Assembly (NCBI GenBank): GCA_026004195.1
Contig: BPIQ01000001.1
Span: forward strand, 653,871-717,870
Length of the DNA: 64,000 nt
Reading direction: 5' to 3'
Origin: Candidatus Binatia bacterium
GTDB taxonomy: Bacteria; Desulfobacterota; Binatia; HRBIN30; BPIQ01
Under the pieces are notes generated by a model. That model was not told the DNA's origin. It saw only the letters and a list, made by a program, of their open reading frames with translations, and made no database searches. The position numbers and the translations under genes were made by a program. Below are positions 5,391 to 41,425 of this stretch, piece after piece (within the stretch, counting starts at the first letter, position 1; each line of letters opens with the position of its first letter).

Positions 5391-6575
5391 GTGGAAAGAA
5401 CGTCCCTCGATCGATTCCGGGAGGAATTGCGGCGGTGGCTCGAGGCCAACATCCCCGACGACCTGCGTCCGGAGCGGGCCGCCCTGCTCCCCGAAAACGA
5501 ACGGGTGGTGCGGTTGCGGGCCTGGCAAAAAAAACTCGCCGAGGCCCGCTGGGTCGGAATCACCTGGCCGCCCGAGTACGGAGGGCGCGGAGCTTCGATC
5601 GCGGAGCAGATCGTCTACACGCAGGAAATGGCGCGTGCCGACGCGCCCGAAATCATCGGAAGTCTCGGCATCGGCATCCTGGGCCCGCCGCTGCTGGCCT
5701 ACGGCACGGAGGAACAGAAGCGCCGGTTCGCCCGCCGGATCCTGACGGCCGAGGATCTCTGGTGCTTCGGTTTTTCCGAACCCTCGGCCGGATCGGACCT
5801 GGCATCGCTGCGTACGCGAGCGGTCCTGGAAGGCGACGTCTTCGTGGTCTCCGGACACAAGATCTGGACCACGCTCGCCCACCACGCCGACTGGTGCATG
5901 CTCCTCTGTCGAACGGACCCCGAGTCGCACCGCAAAGAAGGGATTTCCTGTCTCCTCGTCGACATGCGGAGCCCCGGCATCACGGTACGCCCGCTCCGGC
6001 AAATGAGCGGCGAGGCGGAGTTCAACGAAATCTTTTTCGACGAGGTTCGGGTGCCCCGGGAAAATCTTCTCGGCGAGCTGCACAAGGGCTGGAAAGTCGC
6101 GACCTCGGCCCTGCAGAACGAACGGGGCATCCTGTACGTGGTCGAGATGCAGATCCTGCTCGCCAAGACACGGAACCGGCTCCTCGAGCTCGCCAGGGAA
6201 CGCGGGAAGGCGGGAGACCTCGTCGTTCGGCAAGCGCTGGCCGACCTGTACACCGGAGTGGAGACGTTCCGCAACACGTGCCAGAGGATCCTGAACCGGC
6301 TCCTGAGGATGGAGATGCCCGGACCCGAAGCGTCGATCGTCAAGCTCCACTGGTCGGAGTTGACGCAGGCGATGGCACGAACGGCCATGGAGCTCCTGGG
6401 AACCGAGGGGCTTCTCTACCGCACGCCGGAGCCCGGCGGCGAGCGGCCGGCACCCGAGCAGTGGGTGCAGCGGGCGTTTCTCAATTCCCCCGCTGCCACC
6501 ATAGCCTCGGGCACGTCGGAAATTCTGCGGGGGATCATCGCCATGCAGGTACTCGGGCTGCCGAGAGGGAGCTAG
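5391..6575 (+). CDS. acyl-CoA dehydrogenase
   Basis: 394 aa. Has the ACAD N-terminal, middle and C-terminal domains (GFSEPSAGSDLASL, WTT, C-terminal GTSEILRGIIA). Confidence 0.9.
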   Translation: MERTSLDRFREELRRWLEANIPDDLRPERAALLPENERVVRLRAWQKKLAEARWVGITWPPEYGGRGASIAEQIVYTQEMARADAPEIIGSLGIGILGPPLLAYGTEEQKRRFARRILTAEDLWCFGFSEPSAGSDLASLRTRAVLEGDVFVVSGHKIWTTLAHHADWCMLLCRTDPESHRKEGISCLLVDMRSPGITVRPLRQMSGEAEFNEIFFDEVRVPRENLLGELHKGWKVATSALQNERGILYVVEMQILLAKTRNRLLELARERGKAGDLVVRQALADLYTGVETFRNTCQRILNRLLRMEMPGPEASIVKLHWSELTQAMARTAMELLGTEGLLYRTPEPGGERPAPEQWVQRAFLNSPAATIASGTSEILRGIIAMQVLGLPRGS

Positions 6576-6644
6576 AGCGCCGGAAGCTGCCGCCGGCCTC
6601 CTCGGTCGCGACACGGGACGGCGGCGGAAAAAGGAGGAGTACAC

Positions 6645-7940
6645 ATGGAACTTCGCAAGGTGGCCATCCTCGGGGCCAACGGAACCATGGGGGCCGGGAG
6701 CGCGGAAGTTTTCGCCGCGGGTGGCTGCGAAGTCTTCCTGCTCGCCCGCTCGCGGGATCGTGCCCTCGAAGGGGTGCGGGTCGCGCAGAACCTGGCGAAG
6801 TCCGAGAGGATCGCCGACCGCATGCAGGTGGGGAGCTACGACGAGGACTTCGAGAAGGCCGTGGGCTCGGCGGACCTCGTCTTCGAGGCTCTGGCGGAGG
6901 ACCTGCAGTTGAAAAGTCTCTTCTTCGAGAGGGTGGACGCCTGTCGGAGGCCCGATTCGGTCGTGGCGACGGTGTCGTCGGGACTTTCCATCGCTCGCAT
7001 GGCGAGCGGCCGTAGCGAAAGCTTCCAGAGACACTTTCTCGGCATTCACCTCTTCAACCCGCCGAACGTCATCGTCGGAACGGAAGTGATCCCCCACGGC
7101 GGAACGGATCCCGAGCTCGTGCGCGAACTCGTCCCCCTGCTCGAGCGCCGGTTCGGCCGGAAAGTCGTCGTCTGCCGAGACAAGCCGGCCTTTTGCGGGA
7201 ACCGGGTCGGTTTCAAGGTCCTCAACGAGGTGGCCCAGCTCGCCGGCCGCCACGGCGTCGCCTTCCTCGACTACCTGATCGGACCCCACACGGGCAGGGC
7301 GATGCCGCCGCTCGCCACGGTGGACCTCGTCGGGTGGGACGTCCACAAGGCGATCGTGGACAACGTCTACGAGCTCGTACGGGACGAAGCCCACGAGGCC
7401 TTCCGGCTTCCCGACTACATGGCGCGGCTCGTCGACGAGGGGCGGCTCGGCAACAAGACGCCGGACCGGGGCGGCTTCTACAAGCGCGTCCAGAAGGACG
7501 GGCGCCGCGTCGAACTCTGTCTGGACCCGTCCACGGGCGAGTACCACGAGCCGCGGGTCGAAAAAATCCCCTTCGTCGAACGCATGAAAGAGCTGCACCA
7601 CGTCGGAAAATACCGCGACGCCTGGCGGGAGTTCGCCTCGGCGACGGGTCCCGAGGCGGAACTCGCGCACCGGGTCGTTCTCGGTTACGTGAGCTATGCT
7701 CTCCACCGCGTCGGACCCGACGAGGTCGTGGACCACGCTCGGGACGTGGACCGGATCATGGCGTTCGGATTCAACTGGGCCCCTCCCACGGTCCTCGTGG
7801 ACCTCCTCGGCCTCCGGGAGACCTGGAATTTGCTCGATCGCTACGGCCTGCCCGTCCCGCCCCTGCTCCGCGAGGCCCGTCCGGGAGAGAGGCTCTACCA
7901 GGAGAGGAGCGGGAACATCGGCCGGTTTTTCGCCGGCTGA
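6645..7940 (+). CDS. 3-hydroxyacyl-CoA dehydrogenase (NAD-binding + C-terminal domains)
   Basis: 431 aa. VAILGANGTMGAGSA Rossmann motif and the HADH C-terminal domain. Confidence 0.85.
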   Translation: MELRKVAILGANGTMGAGSAEVFAAGGCEVFLLARSRDRALEGVRVAQNLAKSERIADRMQVGSYDEDFEKAVGSADLVFEALAEDLQLKSLFFERVDACRRPDSVVATVSSGLSIARMASGRSESFQRHFLGIHLFNPPNVIVGTEVIPHGGTDPELVRELVPLLERRFGRKVVVCRDKPAFCGNRVGFKVLNEVAQLAGRHGVAFLDYLIGPHTGRAMPPLATVDLVGWDVHKAIVDNVYELVRDEAHEAFRLPDYMARLVDEGRLGNKTPDRGGFYKRVQKDGRRVELCLDPSTGEYHEPRVEKIPFVERMKELHHVGKYRDAWREFASATGPEAELAHRVVLGYVSYALHRVGPDEVVDHARDVDRIMAFGFNWAPPTVLVDLLGLRETWNLLDRYGLPVPPLLREARPGERLYQERSGNIGRFFAG

Positions 7941-8011
7941 AGACGGCGCTTGCCCCGGCGGCGCCCGAGGTGGTAGCTTCGGACGAGATTCCGGCGACAC
8001 GAGGAGGAACG

Positions 8012-16008: not shown

Positions 16009-16746
16009 ATGGTAAAACACCCTCTCGCCGTGAAGAGGTTCCTCTTCGCCCTGGCCGTTTTCCTCGCCGCCCTCGGGGCGAGATCGGTCCGGGCTCAGGA
16101 CACCGCCCGAGCCGCCTCCGAGGACCGTGCGCGCGTCCTCGCGCGCGAAGCGGTCGAATCTTTCCGGGAAGGCGAAGCCGCAGGGGCGGCGGAGGACAAG
16201 CTGCGGGCTTACCGAAAGGGCGAGGAACTGGCGGAAAAGGCGGTGAAGCTCGACCCCGCGAGCGCCGAGGCGCACTGGGCGCTTTTTGCCAACCGGGGCC
16301 GCCGCCTTCTCTCCGAGGGCGCGACGCCGAACCCGTTCGCGCTGCGCCGTCTCCAGAAAGAGCTCGAACAGTGCCTGGCACTCGATCCCCGGCACTACGA
16401 CGCGCTGGTGGCGCGCGGCGGCCTCTACCGGCAGCTCCCGTGGCTCCTCGGGGGCAACCTGAAGAAAGCCGAGAAAACGCTCCGCCGGGCCGTCGCCATC
16501 AACCCGGAGGCCGTGGGGGGGAGGCTCGAGCTCGCCCGGACGTACATCGACATGGGGAACCGGCGCCGCGCGGTCGAAGTCCTCGAAGAGGCTCTTTTCT
16601 GGGCGGAACGGTTGGGACGCCCCAAGGAAACGGCCGAGGCGCGAGCCTTGCTGTACGAAGTCCTGGGCGAGGAGGCCCGGGACCTCGTCCCGCCCGAGTG
16701 CCCGGCCGCGCCGCAGCCGGTCAGTTCCCTCGCCCGAACGTTCTGA
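16009..16746 (+). CDS. secreted TPR-repeat protein
   Basis: Signal peptide MVKHPLAVKRFLFALAVFLAALGARSVRAQ, then TPR-like helical repeats. Confidence 0.65.
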   Translation: MVKHPLAVKRFLFALAVFLAALGARSVRAQDTARAASEDRARVLAREAVESFREGEAAGAAEDKLRAYRKGEELAEKAVKLDPASAEAHWALFANRGRRLLSEGATPNPFALRRLQKELEQCLALDPRHYDALVARGGLYRQLPWLLGGNLKKAEKTLRRAVAINPEAVGGRLELARTYIDMGNRRRAVEVLEEALFWAERLGRPKETAEARALLYEVLGEEARDLVPPECPAAPQPVSSLARTF

Positions 16747-17056
16747 GGTAGGAAAGGAGGTTGTCGATGTCCTCTTCGCTCAAGGAGGGAGCGAAGGGCA
16801 TCATGGCCGTACCTTGCCTTCCGTTCCGGATGGCGTCTTTCATCTTCGCGACGTCGGCCCGCGCCCAGTAGTCCGGATCCGCGAAATTCGTGGGGGGTGG
16901 CTCCAGGAGGCGGCCGGCAGGGCCGTCCCCTCGCCCGCTCTCCCCGTGACAATACGCGCACCGCTTCGCGTAGATCTCCTTGCCCGCTTCCGGGTCGGCT
17001 GCATGGCTCGCCGAAGCCAGCAGCGCGAAAACGAGTGCCCAGAGGCCGCGGCGCAT
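16721..17056 (-). CDS. class I c-type cytochrome (mono-heme)
   Basis: Signal peptide plus CAYCHG heme-binding motif and a distal Met region. 111 aa. It overlaps the TPR gene 3' end by 26 bp on the opposite strand. Confidence 0.8.
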   Translation of the reverse strand: MRRGLWALVFALLASASHAADPEAGKEIYAKRCAYCHGESGRGDGPAGRLLEPPPTNFADPDYWARADVAKMKDAIRNGRQGTAMMPFAPSLSEEDIDNLLSYLRTFGRGN

Positions 17057-17148
17057 GCTCCTTTTCCGTTCGGGCTCCTTTTTTGCTCCCGTGTCCCGCT
17101 CCGCCGCAATCCCCCGGGGGCGGATTGCGCGCCGCGAGGGCCCGTACT

Positions 17149-27277: not shown

Positions 27278-30200
27278 GTGGCTCGAAGAACGACACCGCG
27301 AACGCATGCGAGCCCCCGGATGTTTCCCCGCGTTCTTTCCCGCGCGGTGCTTCCGGCCTTCCTGGGCATGCTGCTCTTCGCGCCTCCCGCCCTCTGCCAA
27401 CCGCGCGGCATCCAGCAGCTCAACGGATTCGAGGGCGGCGGCGCCGGCGACTACACGACGCAAGGGGCTACGGTCGTCGAGCCCGAGCTCTTTCCCCCTC
27501 CGGACCCTCCTCCGGAGGGTGTCTTCGGTTTCGTGGCCCGGAGCGGCCGCTTCGTCCTGCGAACGCGCAGCGTATCGGGCGAGGTGTCCTACGCGGAAGC
27601 GGCGCTTCCCGTCGCCGCGAACCAGGTGAGCGACGGAATCTGGGCCTGCTTCCGAACCCTTCCGTCCTCCCCGCGGCGCATCCGGAGCTGGTGGGCCGGT
27701 ACGACCCCGGTCTTCGAACTTTGGCTCGAGCCCGACGGTAGGGTCCGGCTCCAGGCAGGAGCTCGGTCCGAAATTTCCACGACGGCGATGGCCGACTGCA
27801 CCTTCGACTTCACGCACTACGAAGTTCTTTACTTCGCGAACGGCTCCCTCACGCTCCGGGTCGGGGGGTTCGTGGAAGCCACCCTGTTCCCGGGCCTCTC
27901 CTCGCCCGTCGACCGAACGAGAATCGGACCCGACGAGCCCTCCGGCGGGAGCCTCGAACTTTTCTGGGACGACCACACGTTCGGCCAGAGCTCGCTGTTC
28001 CACGGCGAGCTCCGTATCGCTTCCCTTCACCCCACGCAGGACGGCCAGTTCGCCGAGTGGACGGCGCAAACCAACCGCACGGGCCCGCCCTGCGACGACC
28101 TGGGCCTTTTCGGCTGCGTCCTCGAGCGCCCCCCGGACGGGGAAGAGACCCTCGTTTCGTCGGACGCGGCCGGCACGAGGGCTTCTTTCTGCCACGAAAC
28201 GACGGCGGACCTTTTTCTTTTCGGCGAAATGCTCGCCGTCAAAACACTGGCCATCGCGCGAGGAGATCCCGGCGCGGGGTTCGAGCTCGGGCTCGAGCTC
28301 GACTCGCCGGCTTGCGGGGGAACCTCGGGCGGCGTGCCGGTGGCGAGTCCGTTCTCCCCCGATTCGTCCTTCCGGGGATTCGCACGCGTGGACGAGGTGA
28401 ATCCCCTGGGGCCGGCTCCCTGGCAAGGCATCGACATCGACCGGACGGAGATCTTTCTCGCCCAAGCCTCGGACGGCGCTCGGGTAGAGGTCACGCAGGT
28501 CTTCCAGGAGGTGGCGTACGACACGACGGGGTTCCCCACGCCCACACTCTCGCCCTCGCCGACGCCGACCGTCACGCCCAGTCCCACGAAAACGCGCACG
28601 TTCACGCCCACCGCCACACCGAGCGTCACTCCCACCGTCACGCGCACCCCGACGCCCAGCCCGACCCCCACCGTTTCGCCCACACCCACTCCATCCCGGA
28701 CCCCTACTCCTTCCCCGACTCCTACGCCCACCCCCACCGCCACGCCGTCTCGGACCCCGACCCTGACCGCCACTCCGAGCCCGACGCCCACGCGGACACC
28801 TACCCCGACTCCCACCACGAGCCCGACGCCGTCCTTCTCACCCTCCTCCACGCCTTCGCCCCTTCCGACGCCTACCGGGACGTTCACACCGAGCGCCACG
28901 CCCAGCCACACGCCTTCTCCGTCTCCCACGGCGACCTTCACGCCCACTCCGCTTCCGACCGCCACTCCCACGAGCCCGTTGCGAGCTCTCACGCACCTGA
29001 ACGGCTTCGAGGCCGGGTCGCGGGAAGACTACAGGGTCGGTGCAGGCGTACCGACCGCCACTTCGCTGGCCCGAAGCGGCCTCTGGGGCATGGGGACCGC
29101 GTCGGCGGGAGCGCCGGAATATCTCTTTTTCGAGCTCGCATCGCCCACGGGTGTCTTCACGGACGGCTTCTGGGCATGCCGTCGCACGTCTTCCCTTTCC
29201 GCCTCGCGCCGGATCCGGTCGTGGCTTTCGAGCCCCGTGATCGCCGTGGTCTCGCTCTACCTCGAACCCGACTTCCGGGTCTCCGTCCGGGTCGAGGGCA
29301 CACCGCTCGGGACGAGCAGCACGCCTATGAGCGCGTGCCCGAACTTCACGCGCTACGAGCTCCAGTACGAAGCGGGAGGGTTCGTCCGCCTGCGCGTCGA
29401 CGGTAGCCAGGAGGTCGAAGCCACCCACGCTTCGACGGCCACGATCGTGCGAAGCCACATCGGACCCGATACGACCGGCTCACCCGTCGACCTCGTCTGG
29501 GACGATCATACCTTCTCTCCTTCGCTCGTCTTCCCCGGAGAGCTGCAAATCCGCGGGCTCGCGGTCACGACCGACGAACAGATCACGGGGTGGGGCAGCG
29601 GAGGCGGGTGCGGCGTGCCGGGGCTCTTCACCTGCGTTCGAGACGTTCCGCCGAACGAATCCCTGTTCGTACAAACCACCCTCGACGGAGCGAGAATCGC
29701 CTTCTGCCACGAGCCGACGAGCGAGGCGGGCATTTTCGGTTCGATTCTCGCCCTCAAAGTCACGGCTCACGCACGGCGCGAGAGCCAGTCGGTCCAGAGC
29801 CCGATGAACCTTTTCGTCCGTACCGACGCTCCGGCGTGCGGAGGAGCGGATCCGCAGAGACACGACGCGCCGGCGAATTTCGTGCCGGAGGTGTTCTACC
29901 AGGGCTTCGGCCGGATTCTCGAGACGAATCCGCGAACGGGTCTCCCGTGGACGGGGGCGGAAATCGACCGCACTTCGGTGGGCGTGACCCACTTCAACGA
30001 CAACGAAGCGGCACGTCTCGCTCAGGTACACGTCTCGGTCGCGTTCGACACGACGGGATTCCCGTCTCCCACGGCGACCCCCAGTCGAACCCCGACTCCC
30101 ACACCCACGCCGCGGCCCCCCACGCCCACCGCGAGCTTCTCGCCGACGAACTCACCCACGCCCACGCGCACGGCGTCTTCGACACCCACCCCCAACCCCA

Positions 30201-31759
30201 CCTCGACGGCGACGGCCACGTTTTCCGCCACACCTTCCCGAACTCCCACGAACACACGCACGCCGACCATCACCCGAACTCCCACGAACACGCGCACGCC
30301 GACGAGGACCCCCACCCCACCGCCCACCTCGGAGATCACCGCGACTCCTTCGGCGACTCTCACGGCCACGCCGAGCCCCGCTCCCACGACTCCCACCCCG
30401 ACGCCCGAATCTCCTACGCGCACCCCCACCGCTTCCGCGACTTCCACTCCTGCTTCCGCCTCTCCGACGCCGACAGCGAGCGAGGTCCCGACCGGCTCGC
30501 CGACCACGACGCCGGCCGAGGGCACGCCGACACCGACCGCCCCCACGGCGGCGCCGACTCCGAGCCCCACTGCATCCGCTTCCCCGTCTCCCACGGCCAC
30601 CGCGAGCTCGCTTCCCACTCCCGGCGTCGATCTACTCATTCTGAGCGGCCCCGAAACCCAGCCCTGCGTCTTCGACGTCGCGGCGAGTCTCATCGGCTTC
30701 GGTAACGCCTCGACACCGCTTTCGCGAATCGGGAACGACCCGCTCTTTTCCGACCCCACGGAGCTACGCTCCCGATACCGCGCCATCGTCGTCCCGGGGG
30801 GCCTGTCTCCGGCGGATTTCACGCAACTCGCGCGCCTGGTCGCTCCCGGAGGAGTTCTTTCGGAATTCGCGCGGCTCGGTGGCTCGCTCGTCCTCGACCT
30901 CCGGGGGTCGTTGCCCGACCCGCCGCCCGACGCCCTGGCTCCACGGGGCGTGAACGCGGACCTGAGCCGCACGCACGCGACGGGTGTCATCGTCGCCCCT
31001 TCCCATCCTTACTTCACGGGCTTCGGCTTCGCCGGAAGGATGCTCGGACCGGATGACTTCGAGGGCTGGGACCCCGTCGACCAGGGAAGCCTCACCGACA
31101 TCGGCGATGCGACGATCCTCGTCGGCAACGAAAGCCTGGCTCCCTCGATGATCGAGTACGCCTGGGGAAGCGGAAAGGTGATCGCCACGACCCTCAACTT
31201 CTGTGCGCAGGGCGCGAACGGGCCCGACCGTCCGGCCCTCGAGAATCTCCTGCGCTACGCGAGGTTCTTTTCCGGCACGGCCCTCACCCCGGCTCCTACG
31301 TTCACACCGACCTGGACTCCCACCGACACCCCGGTACCGCCCACTCCGACACGGACGCCCACCGGGCGGGCCACGGCCACGCCGACCCCTTCGCCGTCCC
31401 CCACCACCACCTTGCCGACGCTGCGTCCCGGAGACATCGACCGGAACGGGAAGCTCGAAGAGGCCGATCTGCGACTTCTCCTGCGGCTGCTCTTCGAGTT
31501 CAGCGGGATACCGGTTTCCGCCTCCGGTGCTCCGCGCGAAGCGGACGCGAACTTCGACGACTTTCTCACCGCGGCGGACGTCGTGGGATGGCTCGCCGCC
31601 CGCGCGGCCGAAAACGAGCGCCCGCCGTTCCAGGACAACGCCGGACCCGCCCTGCAAATCCCCTACCGCAAGGCCCTCCGCGGGAACGCGATCCGACCTC
31701 GCCCCTACGGCGCGAAGAGTGGTTCGCGCTCCTTCGGGGGTCCCGCGGCTTCCACGTAG
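27278..31759 (+). CDS. giant secreted multidomain protein with tandem duplicated ~400-aa domains, Pro/Thr linkers and a C-terminal dockerin-like module
   Basis: 1493 aa with an N-terminal signal peptide (alternative start at MFPRVL). Domains A (aa ~45-430) and B (~565-985) share collinear blocks, including LNGFE, WACxRT..SxRRIRSW and [11 protein letters not shown]. Thr/Pro-rich linkers are encoded at about 28.54-28.98, 30.06-30.61 and 31.29-31.41 kb. The tail [14 protein letters not shown] + [12 protein letters not shown] forms two EF-hand-like dockerin loops. Confidence 0.8.
28540..28985. repeat. low-complexity coding repeat (Pro/Thr linker 1)
   Basis: Reiterated ACGCC/CCCAC/CCGAC triplets encode (T/S)P repeats. 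They create spurious ORFs on both strands. Confidence 0.7.
30060..30615. repeat. low-complexity coding repeat (Pro/Thr linker 2)
   Basis: Same PT-codon reiteration, including near-duplicate CGAACTCCCACGAACAC units (TPTNTRTPT). Confidence 0.7.
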
Positions 31760-32109
31760 GCGAGAAGGGCGCGCTCGAGCTCGCGCACGCTCGCGAGCAC
31801 GCGGTCCCGCAGCTCCGGGTGCTCCTCGGTCTTCGAACCCAGCGCGTACTGCCCGGTCACGATCGTCCTGTAGCGTTCCTCGCCCTCGTCGGCGAAATCC
31901 GTCGCCTCGAAAACGACCATCGTGTCCCCGTCCGGAGAGTTCCGCACCGTGATCGTGCTGATGAGACGGATCCGCGGGACGGGCTCCGCCGTGGGCTTCG
32001 GAGTCGGTTCGTACCATCCGAGCTCCTGCACCACGGGTGGCGGAGCGACGGCCCAGACGAAGGGTAGGAGAGAAAAAACCCAGAGGAGCGTCCACTTCGA
32101 GAACCGCAT
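31705..32109 (-). CDS. small secreted hypothetical protein
   Basis: Internal ATG gives signal peptide [22 protein letters not shown]. 134 aa. Its 3' end overlaps the giant gene 3' end by about 55 bp on the opposite strand. Confidence 0.5.
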
Positions 32110-32172
32110 TCGTTTCCTCCAAGAGCCACGCGCGACCTTATCGGCACGCCGGGACCTTTGCAAAGCCGGGTT

Positions 32173-33528
32173 TCACGGGGCGCGGCAGTTCGGGTCGGGG
32201 TGGAGACAGGGAGCGCGGACGACGATCTCGCGTTCGTTGCCGACGTTCCCCCCGACGTCACGCAAACGAACCTTGAGACGCGTGTCGCCGGGCGGGAAAG
32301 CCATCTCGAGTGCCACCCGTCCGCAGAACTGGACGGTGGAGGCGGGGTCGATCGTGGCGAAGCGGCCGAGCGGGTCCAGCGTGCAGGGCTCCGCTGGCTC
32401 CTTGGCCTCGAAGCGGCAGCCGAAGTCGTTGAGTGCATCCGAAACCGCCGGGTTTCCCTCGAAATCGGGGGGATCGACACCGGGAACTCCTCCCGTGGGT
32501 CTCGGGGTCGGAAGGCTGGGCTCGCACACGAGAGGGTTTCCGTCACCGAGCTTTTTCGAGGAAAGGATCTGGATGTCGGGACGACCTCCGGGGTTGAAAA
32601 CCTGCCGGCCCACGCGGAGCCCGCTCGTGCCCCTGCGGCCTTCGACCACGAGGAGGAAACCACTCGGAACCGGGCGGCAGAAAACGGGGATCCCCCCCTC
32701 GGTCACCTCGATCGGCGCGTCGCAGGGGTCGAACACTCCGTCGTCCCGCCTGGCGACGAAGGCCGTCACCTGCGGTCCGAAGGGCAGCGGTTCGGTGGGG
32801 GTGCGCGTCTGCGTGGCCGTCGGTGTGCGGGACGGCGAGGGCGTGGGGGTCGGAGTCGGTGTTCGCGTGGGCGTCCGGGTCAGGGACGGCGTGAACGTCA
32901 CGGTGGCAGTAGGGACGGGGGTGCGCGTCCGCGTGGGCGACGGCGTGAAGGTGGGGATTCTCGTTTCCGTCGGGGTCCGGGTCGCCGTTCCGGTTCGCGT
33001 GGGCGTGGGAGTGCGGGTGGGAGTGGCCGAGTGCGTGGGCGTGGGAGTACGGGTGGGAGTCCTCGAAGAGGTCACCGTGGGGGTAGGGCTCGCGGCGCGG
33101 GTCGCGGAGGGCGTGGCGGTCGGGGACCATGTGACGGTGCCGGTCGGGGTCGGAGTCGGAGTCCGGGAGAAGAATTCCGTCGGGGAGCCGGTCGGCGTGA
33201 CCGACGGAGATCCGGAGGGCGGAGTGCCGGTCGGAGTCTCCGTGGGAGACACGGAAACGGTCGCGGAAAAAGTGGGAGAAGGTGGGGTAGGCGAACTTCC
33301 GAAGAGGAAAAGGACCGCCACGAGGTCGGCGGCACCGACTCTGCCGTCGCCGTCGACGTCGGCTCCGGGACATCCTCCTTCTGCGAAGATCCCCTCGACG
33401 AGCGCCGGAAGGTCGGCGTCGTCGAGAAACCCGTCGCAGTTCGCGTCACCGGGAAAACCCGGCGCGGTCGCGAACGCCTGCGTGTGGCAGAGGAGACCGA
33501 GCCCCACAAGGAAGAGCGGAACCCGCAA
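32173..33528 (-). CDS. secreted protein with N-terminal dockerin-like double Ca-loop module, Pro/Thr linker and C-terminal Cys-containing domain
   Basis: Signal peptide [33 protein letters not shown] and [13 protein letters not shown] match DxNxDGxxxxxD loops. A PT-rich linker of about 175 aa precedes a roughly 200-aa C-terminal domain with 8 Cys. Confidence 0.75.
32780..33306. repeat. low-complexity coding repeat (Pro/Thr linker in dockerin-like protein)
   Basis: Reiterated GGNGTNGG on plus, encoding PT on the minus strand. Causes multiple artefactual overlapping ORFs. Confidence 0.7.
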
Positions 33529-33549
33529 GGGACGGCCTCTCTCGCTCGT

Positions 33550-34848
33550 TCAGCGATCCGCGAACGTGAACATCGTGATGCCGTCGCCCAGAATGGGCAG
33601 GTGGAGCTGCGGAGCCGCGAAGACGAGCCTACCGGGGCCACCTTCTCGCTCGAAGTCCGTGCAGGAAAAGTTCTCCCCGCGGAGCTCGAACTCGAGAGGT
33701 GGAACCCCGACGAGGGCGTTCGGATTCTCGACTCGTCCGAAAGACCGTTCGGTGGTGAACGCCAGAGCCAGAGAAATTCCCGTCCCCTCGTCCCCACAGG
33801 GCAGAGCGGATTCCTGCGAGAGCTCGACGGGAAACCCCTGGAGACCCAGTTGCGGAAGCGGCGCGATCACCATGGCCCCGGGGGAGACGTCGCGGTCGTC
33901 GGGCTGCACGACCCCCAAGGGGCCGTTGCAGACACCCGGATGCGGAGCACCCGCTCCCTCCACGAGACCTCCCGCCGCGAGGCAATCCTGTTCCGTAAAA
34001 CCGTCCACCCCCACCGTACCGAGCACGTGGTTCTGGACGAGCCCGGCGGAGAAAGACGCGCTCGGGCGGCACGAGAGAAGGATCGCGTCCCGGTCCACGA
34101 CCGTCTCGCCGTTCCGCTCTCCGCGGGCGACCGCACGCACCACCTGCCCTGCAGGACGACCGCAAGAGAGAAGCCCTGCCGCCGAGACCGGAGCCATCGG
34201 CTTCAGGCAAAGGACGAGACCGGCCAAGGCTCGGAGGTCGGCGAACAGGTATTCCGACGTGTCCACGATGTCCACGACGGCCACACCCGTCTGCGGGTCG
34301 GTCGGGCCCGCATGGAACACGATCTCGCCCTGGAAGGGCCCGAGGGCGAGACCGTTGACGCCGAACGACGAGCCACCGGGCGAGAGGACGAAACGCCGGG
34401 TGCCGATCTCGGGGCGGAATTGCCCGCGCAACGGCACCTCCACCGGAACGGGATCCGTGCAAGCCGATTCCCCGGCCGGCAGGAGCTCGCGGAGTGCGGC
34501 CGAGAGGCTCCGCGCGACACTCCCCCCTCGCAACCGGACGGCGGAAATTTCCACACCCGTCGGGTCGCAATCGGGAAGGTCCGGGTCGGGTGTCGCGAGA
34601 CACACCGAGAGCGAGAACGTGCACTTCCCGTCGACGGCTCCGTCCTCGTCGCACTCGGGATCGCCGTCGGCGCAGTCGACGACCCGCGATCCCGGTGCCC
34701 TCGGCTCCACTCCTCCCCACGTGAGGAGGCAATCCGTCGAACGTCGACCGCCGCCTTCGATTTCGCAGTTCTCGGGACAATCGGCCCCGGCGAGAACGGG
34801 CAAAAGGCAGAAAACGAGCGCCGAGGAAACGATGCCGAATCTTTTCAT
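33550..34848 (-). CDS. secreted cysteine-rich hypothetical protein
   Basis: Internal ATG with GGGGAAAG RBS. Signal peptide [22 protein letters not shown], then a Cys/Asp-rich N-terminal segment ([11 protein letters not shown]...[19 protein letters not shown]). 432 aa. No recognisable family. Confidence 0.6.
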
Positions 34849-34990
34849 GCGCTTTCCCCCCGGAAGACTCGCGGAGAGCGCAAGATAGAGTCTTCCGGGC
34901 GACGAATCAACGCACGGAAAACCGGCCCGGCCCTGCGACGTCGAATTCCTTTCCCGAACGATCGATCCGACCGCCGAACGGCACGCGCTC

Positions 34991-35710
34991 TCAGGGCCCC
35001 AGGATGCGGAGCTCCACGCGGCGGTTCCGCGCCCTTCCTTCGGGCGTGTCGTTCGACGCGATCGGTCTCGACTCGCCGTATCCGACCACCGAGAGCCGCG
35101 CCGGGTCGATGCCGGCCGCGACGAGATAACGGTAGACCGCTCGGGCACGGCGTTCGGAGAGCTTCTGGTTGTAAGCCTCGCTCGCGATCGAATCCGTGTG
35201 TCCTTCGATCACGACCTTGACGTCCGGATTCTCGCGGAGGATGGCCACGGCCTCCTCGAGCACGGGCCGGGCATCGGGACGGATATCGCTCTTGTCGTAG
35301 TCGAACTCGACCCCGCGCAGGATGATCTTTTTCTTGACGGGCCGGGGGGTCGGGGTCGGGGGTGGGAGCGTGGGGGTCGGTGTCGGTGTCGGAGCTTCCG
35401 GATCGAACACCATGTGGCCCACGAGGCCACAGAGCACGAGACCCACGGCCCCGCCGATCAGCGCCCCTTTCCACTGCTCCTTGTCGTCGCAAACGACGAC
35501 CGGGGGCTCCCCTTCGACGTTGAGCGCCGTGCATCCCGGCCGGTTGTTCTGGATGACCCACCCGGTTCCCGCCCCGACGGCGCCGCACGCGAGCGCCGGG
35601 ACGAGCGTGCCCTTCCCCCACGGCTTGCGCGCCATTCGCCGTGCGAAGTCGCATCCGCAGAGAACGAGCAGGCACGCGCAAGCGGCCACCAACGTTCGGC
35701 TTCTGAGCAT
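34991..35710 (-). CDS. OmpA-family protein (membrane N-terminal part + PT spacer + OmpA C-terminal peptidoglycan-binding domain)
   Basis: C-terminal ...FDYDKSDIRPDARPVLEE...NRRVELRI is the OmpA_C motif. A short PT spacer ([21 protein letters not shown]) links to a Gly-rich membrane N-terminal part. Confidence 0.8.
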   Translation of the reverse strand: MLRSRTLVAACACLLVLCGCDFARRMARKPWGKGTLVPALACGAVGAGTGWVIQNNRPGCTALNVEGEPPVVVCDDKEQWKGALIGGAVGLVLCGLVGHMVFDPEAPTPTPTPTLPPPTPTPRPVKKKIILRGVEFDYDKSDIRPDARPVLEEAVAILRENPDVKVVIEGHTDSIASEAYNQKLSERRARAVYRYLVAAGIDPARLSVVGYGESRPIASNDTPEGRARNRRVELRILGP

Positions 35711-37307: not shown

Positions 37308-37367
37308 GGAGAAAGAACGTCGCTCTTGTCTTGACCGCGCCCGGCGAGACCCGTATGGGAAGGCGCC

Positions 37368-38558
37368 GTGCGCGTCTTCGGGTCGAAGGAAACGCTCGGG
37401 TTCCTCGCCTGCCTTTTCGTCCTGTTCCCCGCCCCCTCTTACGCGGAGCCCTACCTCGCCCTTCGGGCCGGCGAGCCCTGCGACGCCTGTCATACCAACA
37501 TGACCGGCGGTGGCAAGCGGACGGACCTCGTAGCCATGCACGCGCGCGAGATTCTCCGCTACCCGCGCTGGCTCGGAACGTTCTTCGCCGACGCGGACCG
37601 CTTCACGGGAGAGCTTCACCCCCGCGTGTCCCTCGGCGCGGATCTCCGGACTTCCTACACCGCCCTCTTCCAGGACGAACCCGACGAACGAGGGCTCGTC
37701 GAGAACAACACGGCCTTTCGGGACTTTCACGAAAGCCGCCTCGACGTGACGCAGGCCACGGGCTTCCTCGAGCTCGAACTTTTCACGGACCGGCTGGCCC
37801 TCTACGTCGACCAGCGCCTTTCGCCCACGACGGACAACCGCGAAGCGTTCGCGTTGCTGCGGGGGCTTCCCTGGAACGGCTTTCTCAAGGTGGGACGGAT
37901 GTTCCTGCCCTACGGCCTCCAGCTCCAGGACGACCGGGCTTTTGTCCGCGACGGCTACGAAGGCGTCTCGCCACGAACCGGCTTCAGTTTCGACGCGAGC
38001 CAGGGTGCACTGGAGCTCGGAATCCGACCCGGCCCGTTCCGTTTCGTCACGGCGGTGTCCGAGGGCCGCGGCGGGGACAGAGACGTGCAGTGGACGGGCA
38101 CCGGGAGCCTCTGGCTCGGCGAACTCCCGTGGGTCGACCACGCGATGCTCGGAGGATCCTTTTCCCTCGACGACGCGGGCGACGATCCGACCTGGCTTCT
38201 CGGCGCGTTCGGGGGTCTCTCCCGGGGCCCCGTCGTTCTGCTGGCCGAAGTCGACTTCCGCAGCGAGAAGGGAGAGACGACCGGCGGGGGACGACACGGC
38301 ACTTTTCTCGCTTATGCCGAGGCGAACTATCTCCTGTTCGGCTGGCTCAACGCCAAGCTCGCCTTCGATTACGCGGACGACGACGGAGACCTCCGGCAAC
38401 GGGCCGACGACAGCGAGAATCGGCTGAGTGTCGGCTTCGAGCCTTTTCTCTCCCGTTTTCTCCAGCTCCGCTTCTTCTACCGCGTGGGAAACGGCGTGAG
38501 GTCGAGACCCGAACACAATCGCGACGAGCTTCTGGCCGAGGCGCACCTCTTCTTCTGA
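37368..38558 (+). CDS. putative outer-membrane β-barrel protein with N-terminal CxxCH motif
   Basis: Signal peptide MRVFGSKETLGFLACLFVLFPAPSYA, then EPCDACH near the mature N-terminus. Alternating amphipathic strands and a C-terminal ...HLFF aromatic terminus. 396 aa. Confidence 0.6.
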   Translation: MRVFGSKETLGFLACLFVLFPAPSYAEPYLALRAGEPCDACHTNMTGGGKRTDLVAMHAREILRYPRWLGTFFADADRFTGELHPRVSLGADLRTSYTALFQDEPDERGLVENNTAFRDFHESRLDVTQATGFLELELFTDRLALYVDQRLSPTTDNREAFALLRGLPWNGFLKVGRMFLPYGLQLQDDRAFVRDGYEGVSPRTGFSFDASQGALELGIRPGPFRFVTAVSEGRGGDRDVQWTGTGSLWLGELPWVDHAMLGGSFSLDDAGDDPTWLLGAFGGLSRGPVVLLAEVDFRSEKGETTGGGRHGTFLAYAEANYLLFGWLNAKLAFDYADDDGDLRQRADDSENRLSVGFEPFLSRFLQLRFFYRVGNGVRSRPEHNRDELLAEAHLFF

Positions 38559-38579: not shown

Positions 38580-39017
38580 TCACGAATCGCCGGAGTCGGC
38601 ACGCGGAGCCCCGTCGAGGATCCAACCGACGATCAGAGCGATCTCGTCCTCGGAAAGCGGGGCTTCCCCGAGCGGCATGCGGCTGCCCTCGCCCGCCCGG
38701 GGCCCCCCGAGCTTGCGGACGAGAAAGCTTCGCTCCGGCTCGAACGGTGCCACCCGAAGATCTCCGGCCGCCCGCGCGGCGGGATTGTCCGGCTCGACGC
38801 CCACGAGCTCGTCGAAGGCGGCAGGCCCGGAAAGGTCGAGCCCGCCGGCCCGCGTCTGCGGAGAGTGGCAGGGCCCGGAGGTACAGCGCCGGTCGAAGAT
38901 CTCGCGCTGGATGCGTCCGAAGTCTCCACCGGTCGTGAACGCGACGGGCCCGTCACCGGCACAACCGAAAAGGCACAGGGCGGCCGCGCACCCGATCCGG
39001 CGGAGAAAGGCCCCCAC
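38580..39017 (-). CDS. lipoprotein with PSCyt1-like (Planctomycete-type cytochrome c) domain
   Basis: Lipobox LFGC, then IQREIFDRRCTSGPCHS...AGGLDLS...MPLGEAPLSEDEIALIVGWILDGA, matching the PSCyt1 layout but with CX4CH instead of CxxCH. 145 aa. Confidence 0.55.
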   Translation of the reverse strand: MGAFLRRIGCAAALCLFGCAGDGPVAFTTGGDFGRIQREIFDRRCTSGPCHSPQTRAGGLDLSGPAAFDELVGVEPDNPAARAAGDLRVAPFEPERSFLVRKLGGPRAGEGSRMPLGEAPLSEDEIALIVGWILDGAPRADSGDS

Positions 39018-39056: not shown

Positions 39057-39422
39057 TCAACGAGAACGGGCTTCGAGCACCGTGAGAGCGCTCATCCCGT
39101 GCTTCGTATGCTTTTCGCCCTTGACGACGGCGTTCTCGCCCGCGAGTTTTTTCGCTTCCTCGTACGGCTCGGAGTTCGCGTGGTCGTCGATGAGGAGATA
39201 GAGTTCGCCGTTTTCCGTGAGAAGCCCGATCGGTTTACCCCCTTTGGCGCACATCTTCGCGCAGCTCGCGTGTCCGGCACCCCTCTTACCGTGGCCGAGA
39301 TAACAGGCGAGGTCGACGATTTCCCCTTCGACGGTGACCGGCTCCGCGAAGACCCTGCCGGTCCAGAAAAACACGAGGCCCGACACGAGAGAAAGGAGAA
39401 CCGCCTGTCGGAACGTTCTCAT
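39057..39422 (-). CDS. small secreted Cys/His-containing hypothetical protein
   Basis: Internal ATG gives signal peptide MRTFRQAVLLSLVSGLVFFWTGRVFA. The mature ~95 aa carries CYLGHG...HASCAKMCAKGG. Confidence 0.45.
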   Translation of the reverse strand: MRTFRQAVLLSLVSGLVFFWTGRVFAEPVTVEGEIVDLACYLGHGKRGAGHASCAKMCAKGGKPIGLLTENGELYLLIDDHANSEPYEEAKKLAGENAVVKGEKHTKHGMSALTVLEARSR

Positions 39423-39473: not shown

Positions 39474-40679
39474 GTGGCCTTGTCAATCGGAGAGGGCGCA
39501 AGCGGCGCGGGAGTGTCCGCGAAGCTCCCGTTCGCCGTGCTCTCCCGCGCGGAGGGGGTCTCGCACGGAAACGAATCGGCGGAAGAGACCGGCGGCTACA
39601 CGTTCCGGGAACAGGCCTTTTTCGTCTACGGGACGGGGCTCGCCATCGGACTCCACCTGGCCCTCGTCCATGTCTTCATCTTCCGAACGTGGGCCGTCCT
39701 CCCGATCACGATCGCGGCCACGTTTCTCTTCTCGAGCGCCACGCTCGGCCTCTGGCGGTGGGTTTTCCCCCGTCTCGCTCACCTCCCGTCGCGCCCGCGC
39801 CTTCTCGCGCAGGCGGGCATTTCCGTGGGCGTTTTCGCGGTGACTTCCGTCCTCGTGACCGAGGGGAACGCGGCGCTCACCGCCGCCCGCTCCCTCTTCC
39901 AGCCCTACACGGGAGGGGACCGCGTGGTGACCATCCCGTCGTACATGATCCGCTGGGCCCCGCTCGTCTACACGCTCATCCCGATCGCGCCGACGGCCAT
40001 CATGTGCGTCATCGGCTTCAACCATCACTGGTGGCGCATTTTCCGTCTCGAGGGGCGGCAGAGAGAACTCCAGGCCTGGGCCACCTCGGCCCAGCTCGCG
40101 GCCCTGCGCGCGCAGATGAACCCGCACTTTTTCTTCAACTCGCTCAACTCGATCGCACAGTTGATCTCCTCGGACCCCCGCCAGGCGGAGCGGTGCGTGG
40201 AGCAGCTCGCCGAGGTCTACCGCTACCTCCTTCGCCGCTCGGACAAGGACTTCGTGCCCCTGACGGACGAACTCAAGGTCACGCAGGCTTACCTCGAAAT
40301 CGAGCGGGCCCGGTTCGGCGACGAACTCCGGGTCCAGTGGCACGTCGATCCGGGTGCCGGCGAGACGAGCGTCCCCGCCTTCGTGCTGCAGCCGCTCGTC
40401 GAAAACGCCGTGCGGCACGGGGTGTCGGGAAAACTCGGCGGTGGGGTCGTGCGCGTCGAAGCCCTGCTCCGCAACGGCGACCTCGAGCTCCGAGTGTCGG
40501 ACACCGGCGCAGGGATCGCCGACTCGTCGTCCGTTTTCGAAAGCGGCGTGGCCCTGCGGAACATCCGCGAGCGGCTCGTGAACCTCTACGGCCCGGCGTA
40601 CGCCCCCGAAGTCCGGAGTCGGCCCGGAGAGGGCACCTCCGTGCGCATCCGAATCCCCGTGACGGAGACGCGGTCGTGA
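39474..40679 (+). CDS. sensor histidine kinase, LytS/YehU family
   Basis: Polytopic N-terminal membrane region, then NPHFFFNSLNSI (His_kinase PF06580) and HATPase_c (VENAVRHG...DTGAGI). GTG start chosen downstream of the opposite-strand gene. Start is uncertain. Confidence 0.75.
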   Translation: MALSIGEGASGAGVSAKLPFAVLSRAEGVSHGNESAEETGGYTFREQAFFVYGTGLAIGLHLALVHVFIFRTWAVLPITIAATFLFSSATLGLWRWVFPRLAHLPSRPRLLAQAGISVGVFAVTSVLVTEGNAALTAARSLFQPYTGGDRVVTIPSYMIRWAPLVYTLIPIAPTAIMCVIGFNHHWWRIFRLEGRQRELQAWATSAQLAALRAQMNPHFFFNSLNSIAQLISSDPRQAERCVEQLAEVYRYLLRRSDKDFVPLTDELKVTQAYLEIERARFGDELRVQWHVDPGAGETSVPAFVLQPLVENAVRHGVSGKLGGGVVRVEALLRNGDLELRVSDTGAGIADSSSVFESGVALRNIRERLVNLYGPAYAPEVRSRPGEGTSVRIRIPVTETRS

Positions 40680-41425
40680 TCCGCGCTGTCGTGGTCGACG
40701 ACGAAAAGCTCGCCCGGGACCGTCTCGTCGGCTTTCTCCGGGAAGCCGGCGACGTGGCCATCGAAGGCGAGGCGAGAAACGGGCCCGAAGCGCTACGGTT
40801 GATCGAGGAGAAGGACCCGGACCTCGTGCTTCTCGACGTGCAGATGCCGGGCATGAACGGGTTCGAAGTCCTGCGCCGGCTCCAGAAGCGTCCGCACGTC
40901 GTCTTCGCCACGGCGTACGACGAGTACGCGCTCCGGGCCTTCGAGGTGGAAGCGGTCGACTACCTCCTCAAGCCGGTCTCGCGAGACCGGCTTCTCGAGG
41001 CACTCCGGCGCGTACGGGCGAGGCTCGAATCCCATGCGCCGCCGCCCGACTTCGCCGCGCTCGTGCGGAGGTTCGAAGCCTCTCGCCCCCGCTACCTCGA
41101 ACGCATCCCCGTACATCGCGGCAGGCAGATCCTGCTCCTGCCGGTCGAGACCGTTTTCTGGTTCGCCGTCGAGTTCCGGCTCGTCTACGCGCACACGGCG
41201 ACGGACCGCTACATGACGAACTTCACGCTACGGGAACTCGAAGAGAAGCTCGACCCGGACGTTTTCTTCCGGGCACACAAATCCAGGCTCGTGAACCTCG
41301 AGCAGGTGCGCGCCATTCGACGATCGCTGGGCCGCTACCGACTCGTCATGAAGGACGAGAAAGCCACGGAGCTCGAGCTCAGCCGGACCCAGGCCCGGGT
41401 GCTCCGCGCCCGGCTCGGCTGGTAG
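40676..41425 (+). CDS. LytTR-family response regulator
   Basis: REC domain (VVVDDEKLARD...DLVLLDVQMPGMNGFEV) plus LytTR DNA-binding domain. Its GTG overlaps the kinase stop (GTGA). Confidence 0.8.
   Translation: MIRAVVVDDEKLARDRLVGFLREAGDVAIEGEARNGPEALRLIEEKDPDLVLLDVQMPGMNGFEVLRRLQKRPHVVFATAYDEYALRAFEVEAVDYLLKPVSRDRLLEALRRVRARLESHAPPPDFAALVRRFEASRPRYLERIPVHRGRQILLLPVETVFWFAVEFRLVYAHTATDRYMTNFTLRELEEKLDPDVFFRAHKSRLVNLEQVRAIRRSLGRYRLVMKDEKATELELSRTQARVLRARLGW

Follow-up and report, generated by a model that had tools for sequence, protein, structure and literature searches.

A 64,000-nucleotide stretch of contig BPIQ01000001.1 from Candidatus Binatia bacterium (hereafter the window, in which positions are counted from the first letter) contains at 37368-38558 a gene whose 396-amino-acid product is predicted to be an outer-membrane cytochrome-porin, a fusion of a 16-strand porin barrel to a short N-terminal segment that would carry one c-type haem. 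With a small c-type cytochrome encoded by the adjacent gene, this protein, which is built like the Fe(II) oxidase Cyc2, probably moves electrons across the outer membrane as one half of a two-protein conduit; such a route is proposed because of that resemblance and because its usual genomic neighbour is a cytochrome that resembles FoxE. Fused cytochrome-porins are already known in the form of Cyc2, and what is new is a separate family with a different haem-site signature and a conserved cytochrome partner. The elements of the system are as follows.

37368-38558, forward strand: porin gene, an open reading frame (ORF) with a GTG start that encodes 396 amino acids, stop codon included.
37357-37363, forward strand: Shine-Dalgarno-like GGGAAGG, 4 nucleotides ahead of the GTG start, read from the sequence.
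37368-37445, forward strand: predicted signal peptide, residues 1-26 (MRVFGSKETLGFLACLFVLFPAPSYA), from sequence features and the family alignment.
37446-37523, forward strand: putative haem-binding segment, residues 27-52 (EPYLALRAGEPCDACHTNMTGGGKRT), the most conserved part of the protein.
37611-38555, forward strand: predicted 16-strand β-barrel, residues 82-396, from DSSP on the AlphaFold2 model, with a β-signal-like end, H393-L-F-F.
37905-37997, forward strand: L3-like loop, residues 180-210 (LPYGLQLQDDRAFVRDG...), between strands 5 and 6 of the AlphaFold2 model (residues 171-179 and 211-219).
38580-39017, reverse strand: partner gene, an ORF for a 145-amino-acid lipoprotein-like small c-type cytochrome (PSCyt1/FoxE-like), identical to KatS3mg076_0614.

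The product of the porin gene is identical (100%) to the NCBI entry 'hypothetical protein KatS3mg076_0613 [Candidatus Binatia bacterium]'. Its leader is of the n-h-c type and ends in SYA, with predicted cleavage ahead of an invariant E27-P28-Y29; the mature N-terminus that follows MRVFGSKETLGFLACLFVLFPAPSYA starts EPYLALRAGEPCDACH, and the C-terminus reads ...AEAHLFF. An earlier description made from the nucleotide sequence without database searches (the sequence-only reading) had taken the product of this ORF for an outer-membrane β-barrel on the strength of its signal peptide, amphipathic β-strand periodicity and HLFF end, and the ORF is real. The EPCDACH motif that the same reading placed about 15 residues past the cleavage site is present, at a distance of 12 residues, with its CxxCH at C38-D-A-C41-H42 (residues 38-42, nucleotides 37479-37493). 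This is the sole CxxCH in the protein, and across all six frames of the window, which has a G+C content of ~68%, just two ORFs of at least 60 amino acids carry the motif; its occurrence in the 396-residue protein is far beyond chance expectation.

The protein has no match in Pfam (E ≤ 1) or NCBIfam, and a profile of its family found none among PDB sequences. A word-indexed search returned at least 295 homologs of 390-410 amino acids, none of them annotated, and an exhaustive profile search recovered 963 representatives of clusters at 50% identity with E ≤ 1e-3, including 531 at ≤ 1e-10. Named members come from Binatia, Nitrospirota, Ignavibacteria, Bacteroidota, a metagenome-assembled genome (MAG) labelled Phycisphaeraceae and 'Deltaproteobacteria' MAGs; all are 'hypothetical' except one, which is labelled 'porin' and has a Porin_4 match. 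The family is common in soil, sediment and groundwater metagenomes, its members derive from uncultured MAGs, and no description of it was found in the searchable literature, including searches that combined Binatia with Cyc2 and PSCyt1 with outer membrane.

Conservation within the family is centred on the putative haem site, which has the signature AEP[YF]xAxRxGxxCxxCHxNxxGGGxR. Rather than lacking the Cys/His motif entirely, a possibility raised in the sequence-only reading, the homologs keep it: 225 of 230 fetched full-length proteins (representatives down to E ~1e-36) have a CxxCH within their first 140 residues. Among 38 close relatives the invariant positions include E27, P28, Y29, R33, G35, C38, C41, H42, N44, G47, G48, G49 and R51, and in a 222-sequence alignment C38, C41, H42, G47, R51, G176 and G218 are 100% conserved. 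In the latter alignment 14 of the 26 positions of the haem segment are at least 85% conserved, and mean conservation is 0.78 in this segment vs 0.29 in the signal peptide; signal peptides across the family are hydrophobic and variable, and all end at A|EPY. The two roles that had been offered for the motif were covalent haem attachment and a redox-active Cys pair; because the His is invariant, it is read as a conserved CxxCH of the haem-c type, neither a CxxC redox pair nor a chance pair of Cys residues. No Met is conserved in the 222 sequences, and H393 (95%) is the only conserved His besides H42, making it a candidate distal ligand of the haem. A subclade (P0186, P0218, P0225, P0228, P0238, P0261 and P0263) has a second CxxCH ~82-93 residues past the first, and its members would be dihaem cytochrome-porins because of this additional motif.

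The proposal that the protein is an outer-membrane β-barrel is upheld by structure prediction, which returned no non-barrel fold. The AlphaFold2 model, run on an alignment of the 38 sequences, has a predicted local distance difference test score (pLDDT) of 81.6 and a predicted template modelling score (pTM) of 0.80, with barrel blocks mostly at ~90, and DSSP assigns it 16 strands (residues 82-395). Residues 27-81, which bear the haem motif, are modelled with lower confidence and are partly helical. When this model was compared with the PDB by Foldseek, the top matches were exclusively 16-strand porins, with VhChiP at E 5e-12, OprP (2o4v) at rank 3 (E 1e-11, TMq 0.60) and OprO (4rjw) at rank 23. 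The 16-strand porins OprP, OprO, VhChiP, OmpF and PorB share the barrel fold of the 396-residue protein (Foldseek E 5e-12 to 1e-9, TM ~0.55-0.6) and its long loop between strands 5 and 6 (L3), but they have only 10-14% identity to it and, unlike it, are without a haem motif and without an N-terminal extension.

The pattern of strands and loops is that of a porin, with short periplasmic turns and a 31-residue loop between strands 5 and 6 at the position of the constriction loop, and by analogy with porin topology this L3-like loop would lie inside the lumen. The second most conserved region of the family comprises strand 5 and the first half of the following loop (K174-x-G...P-x-G....D-D..F-x-R), with the conserved stretch starting at K174, within strand 5. 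Seven positions of the L3-like loop are at least 85% conserved, loops L1, L5 and L6 have none, and the other predicted external loops are variable.

The number of strands also bears on the suggestion, made in the sequence-only reading, that the protein resembles the MtrB/PioB-type porins that form a sheath around a separate multihaem cytochrome. That suggestion came from reasoning on an N-terminal Cys pair in an outer-membrane barrel, not from a computed result. The barrels of PioB, MtoB and MtrB have ~26 strands (PMC10654088), whereas the model has 16 and folds like 16-strand porins; no match to MtrB_PioB (PF11854) was found at E ≤ 1, and neither the window nor the related loci that were examined encode a multihaem cytochrome, such as a decahaem protein of the MtrA/PioA type. 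An MtrB/PioB sheath is effectively refuted by these findings, and hardly any credence is left to it. MtrAB, PioAB and MtoAB presumably share with the present family the purpose of moving electrons across the outer membrane by means of a barrel and a c-type cytochrome. They place a ~26-strand barrel around a separate decahaem protein, whereas the barrel of the family has 16 strands and would carry a single haem on the same polypeptide, and the family matches these systems in neither sequence nor structure.

The sequence-only reading had regarded a haem-bearing outer-membrane protein as unusual, and named neither Cyc2 as a comparator nor the small cytochrome gene adjacent on the opposite strand; such a protein is not unprecedented, because Cyc2 exists. 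Cyc2 is defined by a signal peptide, one CXXCH, a length of at least 365 amino acids and a 16-strand porin modelled on the structural templates OprO and OprP, and further by AxPxFAR[Q/K][T/Y] upstream of the CXXCH, which serves as an inclusion filter, and PxL 4 residues downstream (Keffer et al., 2021; PMC8406198). Sequence similarity to Cyc2 is judged by blastp at E ≤ 1e-5 or by the FeGenie Cyc2 hidden Markov models (HMMs). The 396-residue protein has the signal peptide (by sequence features), the single N-terminal CXXCH, the length and the OprO/OprP-like 16-strand porin. Cyc2 references came from GTDB genomes that were searched with a FARQ...CxxCH pattern at the DNA level, and 54 ORFs with PxFAR[QK]x4CxxCH were extracted from the matches, including those of Sideroxydans, Gallionella and Acidithiobacillus MAGs; the distance from the Pro to the first Cys is 10 in all 54 and 10 in the 396-residue protein.

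Like the family described here, the Cyc2 proteins of Acidithiobacillus ferrooxidans (Cyc2), Mariprofundus (Cyc2PV-1) and Leptospirillum (Cyt572) have one CxxCH ~11-12 residues from the mature N-terminus, and the two groups share the pattern A-x-P-x-x-A-x-x-x-G-x-x-CxxCH, a short haem segment that leads into a 16-strand barrel, a signal peptide, a size of ~400 amino acids, a gene that often stands alone and a barrel sequence that is poorly conserved relative to the haem segment. They differ in that the family has [LIMF]-A-x-R-x-G where Cyc2 has FAR[Q/K][T/Y], and an invariant N-x-x-G-G-G-[KM]-R where Cyc2 has P-x-L...G..FK. The family thus has the architecture of Cyc2 and the same upstream half of the haem site, whereas the downstream half is different and equally conserved. 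The host range also differs from that of Cyc2, extending over Binatia, Nitrospirota, Ignavibacteria, Bacteroidota and others, and the family has a conserved FoxE/PSCyt1-like cytochrome partner gene that is found at 0 of 120 Cyc2 loci.

Profile-profile comparison (hhalign) of the family with Cyc2 gave a probability of 95-96% over the full length, and the haem segment alone gave 95% (P 4e-8) over its first 19 columns. This haem-segment match, at P 5e-8 to 1.5e-5, outscores all 30 column shuffles in which the CxxCH was kept fixed, and reversed nulls remained at <1%. Scores of individual sequences on Cyc2 HMMs were 5-18 bits and confined to the leader and haem motif, and these were rejected as stand-alone evidence because they are weak and partly driven by the signal peptide. 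Divergent family members exist, such as ALPRFASRTGAKCQSCH (ALPRFASRTG..CxxCH), that reach 20-25 bits on the Cyc2 HMM and 140-180 bits on the family HMM. A remote common origin with Cyc2 is plausible. Among the canonical Cyc2 loci (L002-L121), the haem segments of the subgroups match one another at 99%, over 41 columns with P 1e-17 to 1e-22, whereas the barrel of the FARQY type scores <1% against those of the other two subgroups. Barrel sequence is a poor criterion for Cyc2 membership in general, because the subgroup barrels are mutually unrecognisable.

The second predicted component of the conduit is the product of 38580-39017, whose gene is convergent with the porin gene, the two stop codons being 21 nucleotides apart. 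It has a Cx4CH motif (C45-TSGP-C50-H51) and an M114-P115 pair, and the positions that are invariant in the partner alignment are C45, C50, H51, M114-P115 and W132-I133. Among 77 partner domains the spacing of the two Cys residues is CxxCH in 46, Cx3CH in 3 and Cx4CH in 28, and the His always follows the second Cys; Cx3-4CH motifs are able to bind haem c in other cytochromes. A crude lipobox pattern lies upstream of 62 of 87 partner domains, and the LFGC of the window's partner aligns in this region with the LSGC of the partner in L124, the locus of the closest Binatia relative. The window's partner scores 148 bits on the partner HMM, and by BLASTP it is homologous to partners from other phyla that abut the porin gene in Ignavibacteria-type and other loci (L127, L128 with two copies, and L130), which are likewise small, secreted or lipoprotein-like, and have CxxCH or Cx4CH.

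In Pfam, the partner proteins matched no families other than those of cytochrome c. A partner that comes from another phylum is above the gathering score of PSCyt1 (PF07635), with 29 vs 22 bits, and weaker matches are to Cytochrome_CBB3, Cytochrom_C and PccH; the window's partner alone has no Pfam match and a weak NCBIfam match to TIGR03806, the SO2930 family of dihaem cytochromes (E 6e-4). Partners share with PSCyt1/TIGR03806 a pattern of helix, C..CH, ...L.L..., ...S.L..K..., MP and W I..GA, but most of them, including that of the window, are below the curated cut-offs, and PSCyt1 is normally part of very large multidomain planctomycete proteins, whereas the partners are stand-alone lipoproteins of 130-150 amino acids beside a porin.

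When a 15-sequence partner profile was compared with the PDB, the best match was FoxE (E 1.2e-11), with alignment to both of its haem domains including C..CH and RMPxG; the next matches were the haem domain of hydrazine synthase alpha (1e-6), cytochromes c6 (1e-4) and PccH. FoxE was still first, at E 0.0044, with a profile built from Binatia partners only. FoxE, the dihaem Fe(II) oxidoreductase of Rhodobacter ferrooxidans SW2 (PDB 5MAB/5MVO; for its function see PMC10654088), has in common with the partner family the C..CH motif, RMPxG and a C-terminal W-I..GA helix. M114-P115 of the window's partner align with RMPLG and RMPPG of FoxE, in which the Met of RMPxG is the distal ligand. FoxE has two domains with CxxCH and is associated with FoxY and FoxZ, whereas the window's partner has one domain with Cx4CH, is apparently a lipoprotein and is paired with an outer-membrane cytochrome-porin.

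The association of the two genes was examined by scanning metagenome contigs with a degenerate DNA pattern for CxxCHxNxxGGGxR and then seeking the partner with its HMM. This yielded 110 loci with a family gene. A partner was present within 1.5 kb in 60 of the 89 loci that have at least 600 nucleotides of flank, and in 23 of the 28 that have at least 1 kb on both sides; in these metagenomic loci it is nearly always directly upstream on the same strand. The same HMM found no partner at the 120 canonical Cyc2 loci (905 kb), and the adjacency is statistically strong. Within the Binatia clade a partner is found within 4 kb in 3 of 4 genomes, and in L124 and L125 a two-domain form lies 3-4 kb away.

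No third gene recurs comparably in the 110 loci, where the most frequent were a subtilase-like ORF (9), an apparent extracytoplasmic function (ECF) σ factor (8) and a putative anti-σ factor (6). Sigma-70/ECF genes annotated by Pfam adjoin the porin-partner module in L128, L129 and L130. The recurrence of ECF σ and anti-σ genes hints at envelope-stress or signal-dependent regulation in some lineages. At L129, a Nitrospiraceae contig from TARA Oceans, the usual partner is replaced by a 542-amino-acid protein encoded directly upstream of the family gene (6315-7943, forward strand), which has three CxxCH motifs, a Cytochrome_P460 match and a faint Cytochrome_CBB3 match, and an ECF σ/anti-σ pair is just downstream. 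At L127 a small lipoprotein with a faint cupredoxin (Copper-bind) match is encoded 2 kb upstream of the partner-porin pair (5825-6235, forward strand), with a YceI-family gene directly downstream. This arrangement is reminiscent of rusticyanin beside cyc2 in Acidithiobacillus.

It is very unlikely that the protein is an ordinary substrate-specific porin, in which the Cys pair would be a disulfide or metal site, no haem would be bound and the neighbouring cytochrome would be coincidental. Such a porin would be in keeping with the putative nature of the haem attachment, with the relative labelled 'porin' by its Porin_4 match and with the conserved acidic L3-like loop, which is expected of a cation-selective porin. 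However, the His after the second Cys is as fully conserved as both Cys in the 222 sequences and is not needed by a CxxC redox or metal site, the partner that recurs in 23 of 28 loci vs 0 of 120 controls is itself a c-type cytochrome, and one subclade has added a second CxxCH.

If the protein is instead a haem-bearing cytochrome-porin with a role in electron transfer, as seems reasonably likely, it would be an outer-membrane protein with one c-type haem putatively attached to C38 and C41 and H42 as proximal ligand. The haem segment and the conserved acidic L3-like loop would probably form a redox site in or at the lumen or its periplasmic mouth, which a small soluble redox species, with Fe2+ as leading candidate, would reach from outside. 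An electron would then pass to the small His/Met monohaem cytochrome c encoded next to it, a lipoprotein that would be anchored in the outer membrane, and from there into the electron-transport chain of the periplasm and inner membrane. Electrons may also flow the opposite way, in which case the partner would deliver rather than collect them. We infer that the haem lies in the lumen and that porin and partner are in physical contact, and likewise which way electrons move and with what substrate. Both components have Fe(II) oxidases as their closest characterised analogues, which makes Fe(II) oxidation the leading guess, and by this analogy Fe(II) specifically is a tentative choice of substrate, held at somewhat less than even.

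A related possibility, to which a low probability is assigned, is that the same module of haem-porin and cytochrome does another job, such as reducing extracellular acceptors (Fe(III), Mn(IV) or humics, for instance), oxidising Mn(II) or sulfur species, detoxifying Fe(II), or reacting with a small ligand (H2O2, NO or hydroxylamine) at a five-coordinate haem. Open or unusual haem coordination is possible because no Met is conserved and H393 is the only other His that could be a sixth ligand. The Gly-rich N-x-x-GGG-x-R that follows the haem motif is unlike electron-transfer class-I cytochromes, the Nitrospiraceae locus has a Cytochrome_P460-like protein directly upstream in place of the usual partner, the family occurs in lineages rich in heterotrophs of soil and sediment (Ignavibacteria, Bacteroidota and Binatia), and there is no terminal oxidase nearby. 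Cyc2 and FoxE, the Fe(II)-oxidising analogues of porin and partner respectively, argue the other way, as does the invariant Met-Pro of the partner, which is the mark of a His/Met electron carrier.

Several observations weigh against a Cyc2-like conduit of porin and partner. Haem attachment to the 396-residue protein is itself something we infer from the motif. The window's partner has Cx4CH rather than CxxCH, found no match in the PDB as a single sequence, and has a poor AlphaFold2 model (pLDDT 60; all-alpha, with one helix at the N-terminus that leads into the Cys motif and another at the C-terminus), from which Foldseek returned nothing significant at this low confidence; the similarity to FoxE may be generic to this subclass of cytochromes, because the hydrazine synthase haem domain also matches at E 1e-6. 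The partner gene of the window is on the opposite strand from the porin gene, and the two are not co-transcribed there for that reason, and in the Binatia relative L122 no partner is present within 10 kb. Multihaem cytochromes and ccm genes, which the sequence-only reading had suggested seeking nearby, are absent from the 64-kb window, as are oxidase or other respiratory genes. Binatia are described mainly as methylotrophs and alkane degraders, and no literature linking them to Cyc2 was found. With respect to Cyc2 itself, the upstream motif PxFAR[Q/K][T/Y] is replaced by A-E-P-Y-L-A-L-R-A-G in the window and AEPYxAVREG in the family, and PxL is replaced by T-N-M-T-G-G-G-K-R, with N44, G47-G49 and R51 invariant. 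The 396-residue protein scores only 5.6 bits on a Cyc2 HMM built from 36 canonical ORFs, the haem-segment match is short, at 19 columns, with the best column shuffle reaching P 3e-6, and the barrel has a non-significant profile similarity to that of Cyc2 (21%); the barrel-only test is uninformative either way, because it also fails between accepted Cyc2 subgroups.

These differences also bear on whether the protein could be a divergent bona fide Cyc2, a fourth cluster that would act as a stand-alone Fe(II) oxidase, with its neighbour taking the place of Cyc1 as a periplasmic acceptor specific to the lineage. The protein does not differ from Cyc2 in architecture, size, number of strands (16) or OprP/OprO-like fold; its CxxCH lies at the same distance from the mature N-terminus, and it has the A-x-P...A...G..CxxCH positions in common with Cyc2. 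Some family members have motifs of an intermediate kind, and accepted Cyc2 subgroups also have unrecognisable barrels (<1% between the FARQY type and others). A bona fide Cyc2 is nevertheless unlikely: the match to Cyc2 covers 19 columns at P 5e-8 to 1.5e-5, compared with 41 columns and P 1e-17 to 1e-22 within Cyc2; FAR[Q/K][T/Y] and PxL are absent, with an equally invariant N-x-x-G-G-G-x-R in their place and an HMM score of 5.6 bits; and the conserved partner gene occurs at none of 120 Cyc2 loci. Although the family would work in the manner of Cyc2, it should not be classified as Cyc2, because two defining motifs are missing and the similarity used to recognise Cyc2 is not reached. On the sequence evidence it is a distinct family, with its own haem-site signature and its own conserved partner, and no curated model.

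The surroundings of the porin-partner pair in the window are mainly housekeeping genes, which include hisS, an OmpA-family gene, purM (divergent), purU, SLT/LysM, DegP, PBP1, TsaD and H+-PPase, and relatives in the Binatia clade show only order-level synteny, with no conserved operon and no respiratory genes; it was among distant family members that neighbouring genes became informative. Other features of the window are listed below.

16721-17146, reverse strand: class-I cytochrome c of 141 amino acids with CAYCH (Pfam Cytochrome_CBB3 1e-14, Cytochrom_C 5e-14).
39057-39422, reverse strand: secreted Cys/His-rich protein of 121 amino acids (…DLACYLGHGKRGAGHASCAKMCAKGG…), with no Pfam or NCBIfam match.
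39474-40679 and 40676-41425, forward strand: LytS-type histidine kinase and LytTR regulator pair.
32174-34849, reverse strand: two adjacent ORFs of ~450 and ~430 amino acids, with no Pfam match.
27278-31759, forward strand: very long unannotated ORF (~1,490 amino acids), after hisS.

Apart from the porin and its partner, the 64 kb encode a single c-type cytochrome, that at 16721-17146; it is monohaem, is encoded 20 kb from the porin gene and is flanked by genes for a tetratricopeptide repeat (TPR) protein and a carboxyltransferase. The Cys/His-rich protein is 59% identical to a 120-amino-acid protein of the closest Binatia relative (L124, 16386-16748), and in both genomes its gene lies between the partner gene and the LytS/LytTR pair. 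This protein could be a metal- or redox-sensing accessory of the porin-partner module. The two ORFs at 32174-34849 are upstream of the OmpA-family gene (34991-35635, reverse strand) in an arrangement that is syntenic with L124; the ORFs from 27278 to 34849 and the OmpA-family gene are a conserved envelope-related block of Binatia with no assigned function.

Inferences of microbial Fe(II) oxidation from genomes and metagenomes depend mainly on Cyc2 as a genetic marker, and the family described here is excluded by the published Cyc2 criteria because these require PxFAR[Q/K][T/Y]. It is possible, at a little under even, that the family and its partner constitute an undescribed and widespread two-component conduit, in which a monohaem cytochrome-porin, either a sister of Cyc2 or a convergent form, and an obligate FoxE-like lipoprotein cytochrome carry out Fe(II) oxidation or another extracellular redox reaction in Binatia, Nitrospirota, Ignavibacteria, Bacteroidota and further uncultured lineages of soil and sediment; the protein would then be the first member of such a conduit to be recognised, and present marker-gene tools (Cyc2 HMMs and motif filters, for example) would overlook the capacity. 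If these proteins are functional cytochrome-porins, organisms that exchange electrons with extracellular iron or similar substrates would be substantially undercounted, given the 963 clusters at 50% identity in several phyla. The pairing with a FoxE-like cytochrome would provide a testable answer to which protein takes the electron of a Cyc2-type porin on the periplasmic side, and the occurrence of PxL...FK and NxxGGGxR on one 16-strand scaffold would point to the essentials of a one-haem trans-membrane redox site. For the Binatia themselves, such a function suggests a previously unrecognised link to metal redox cycling.

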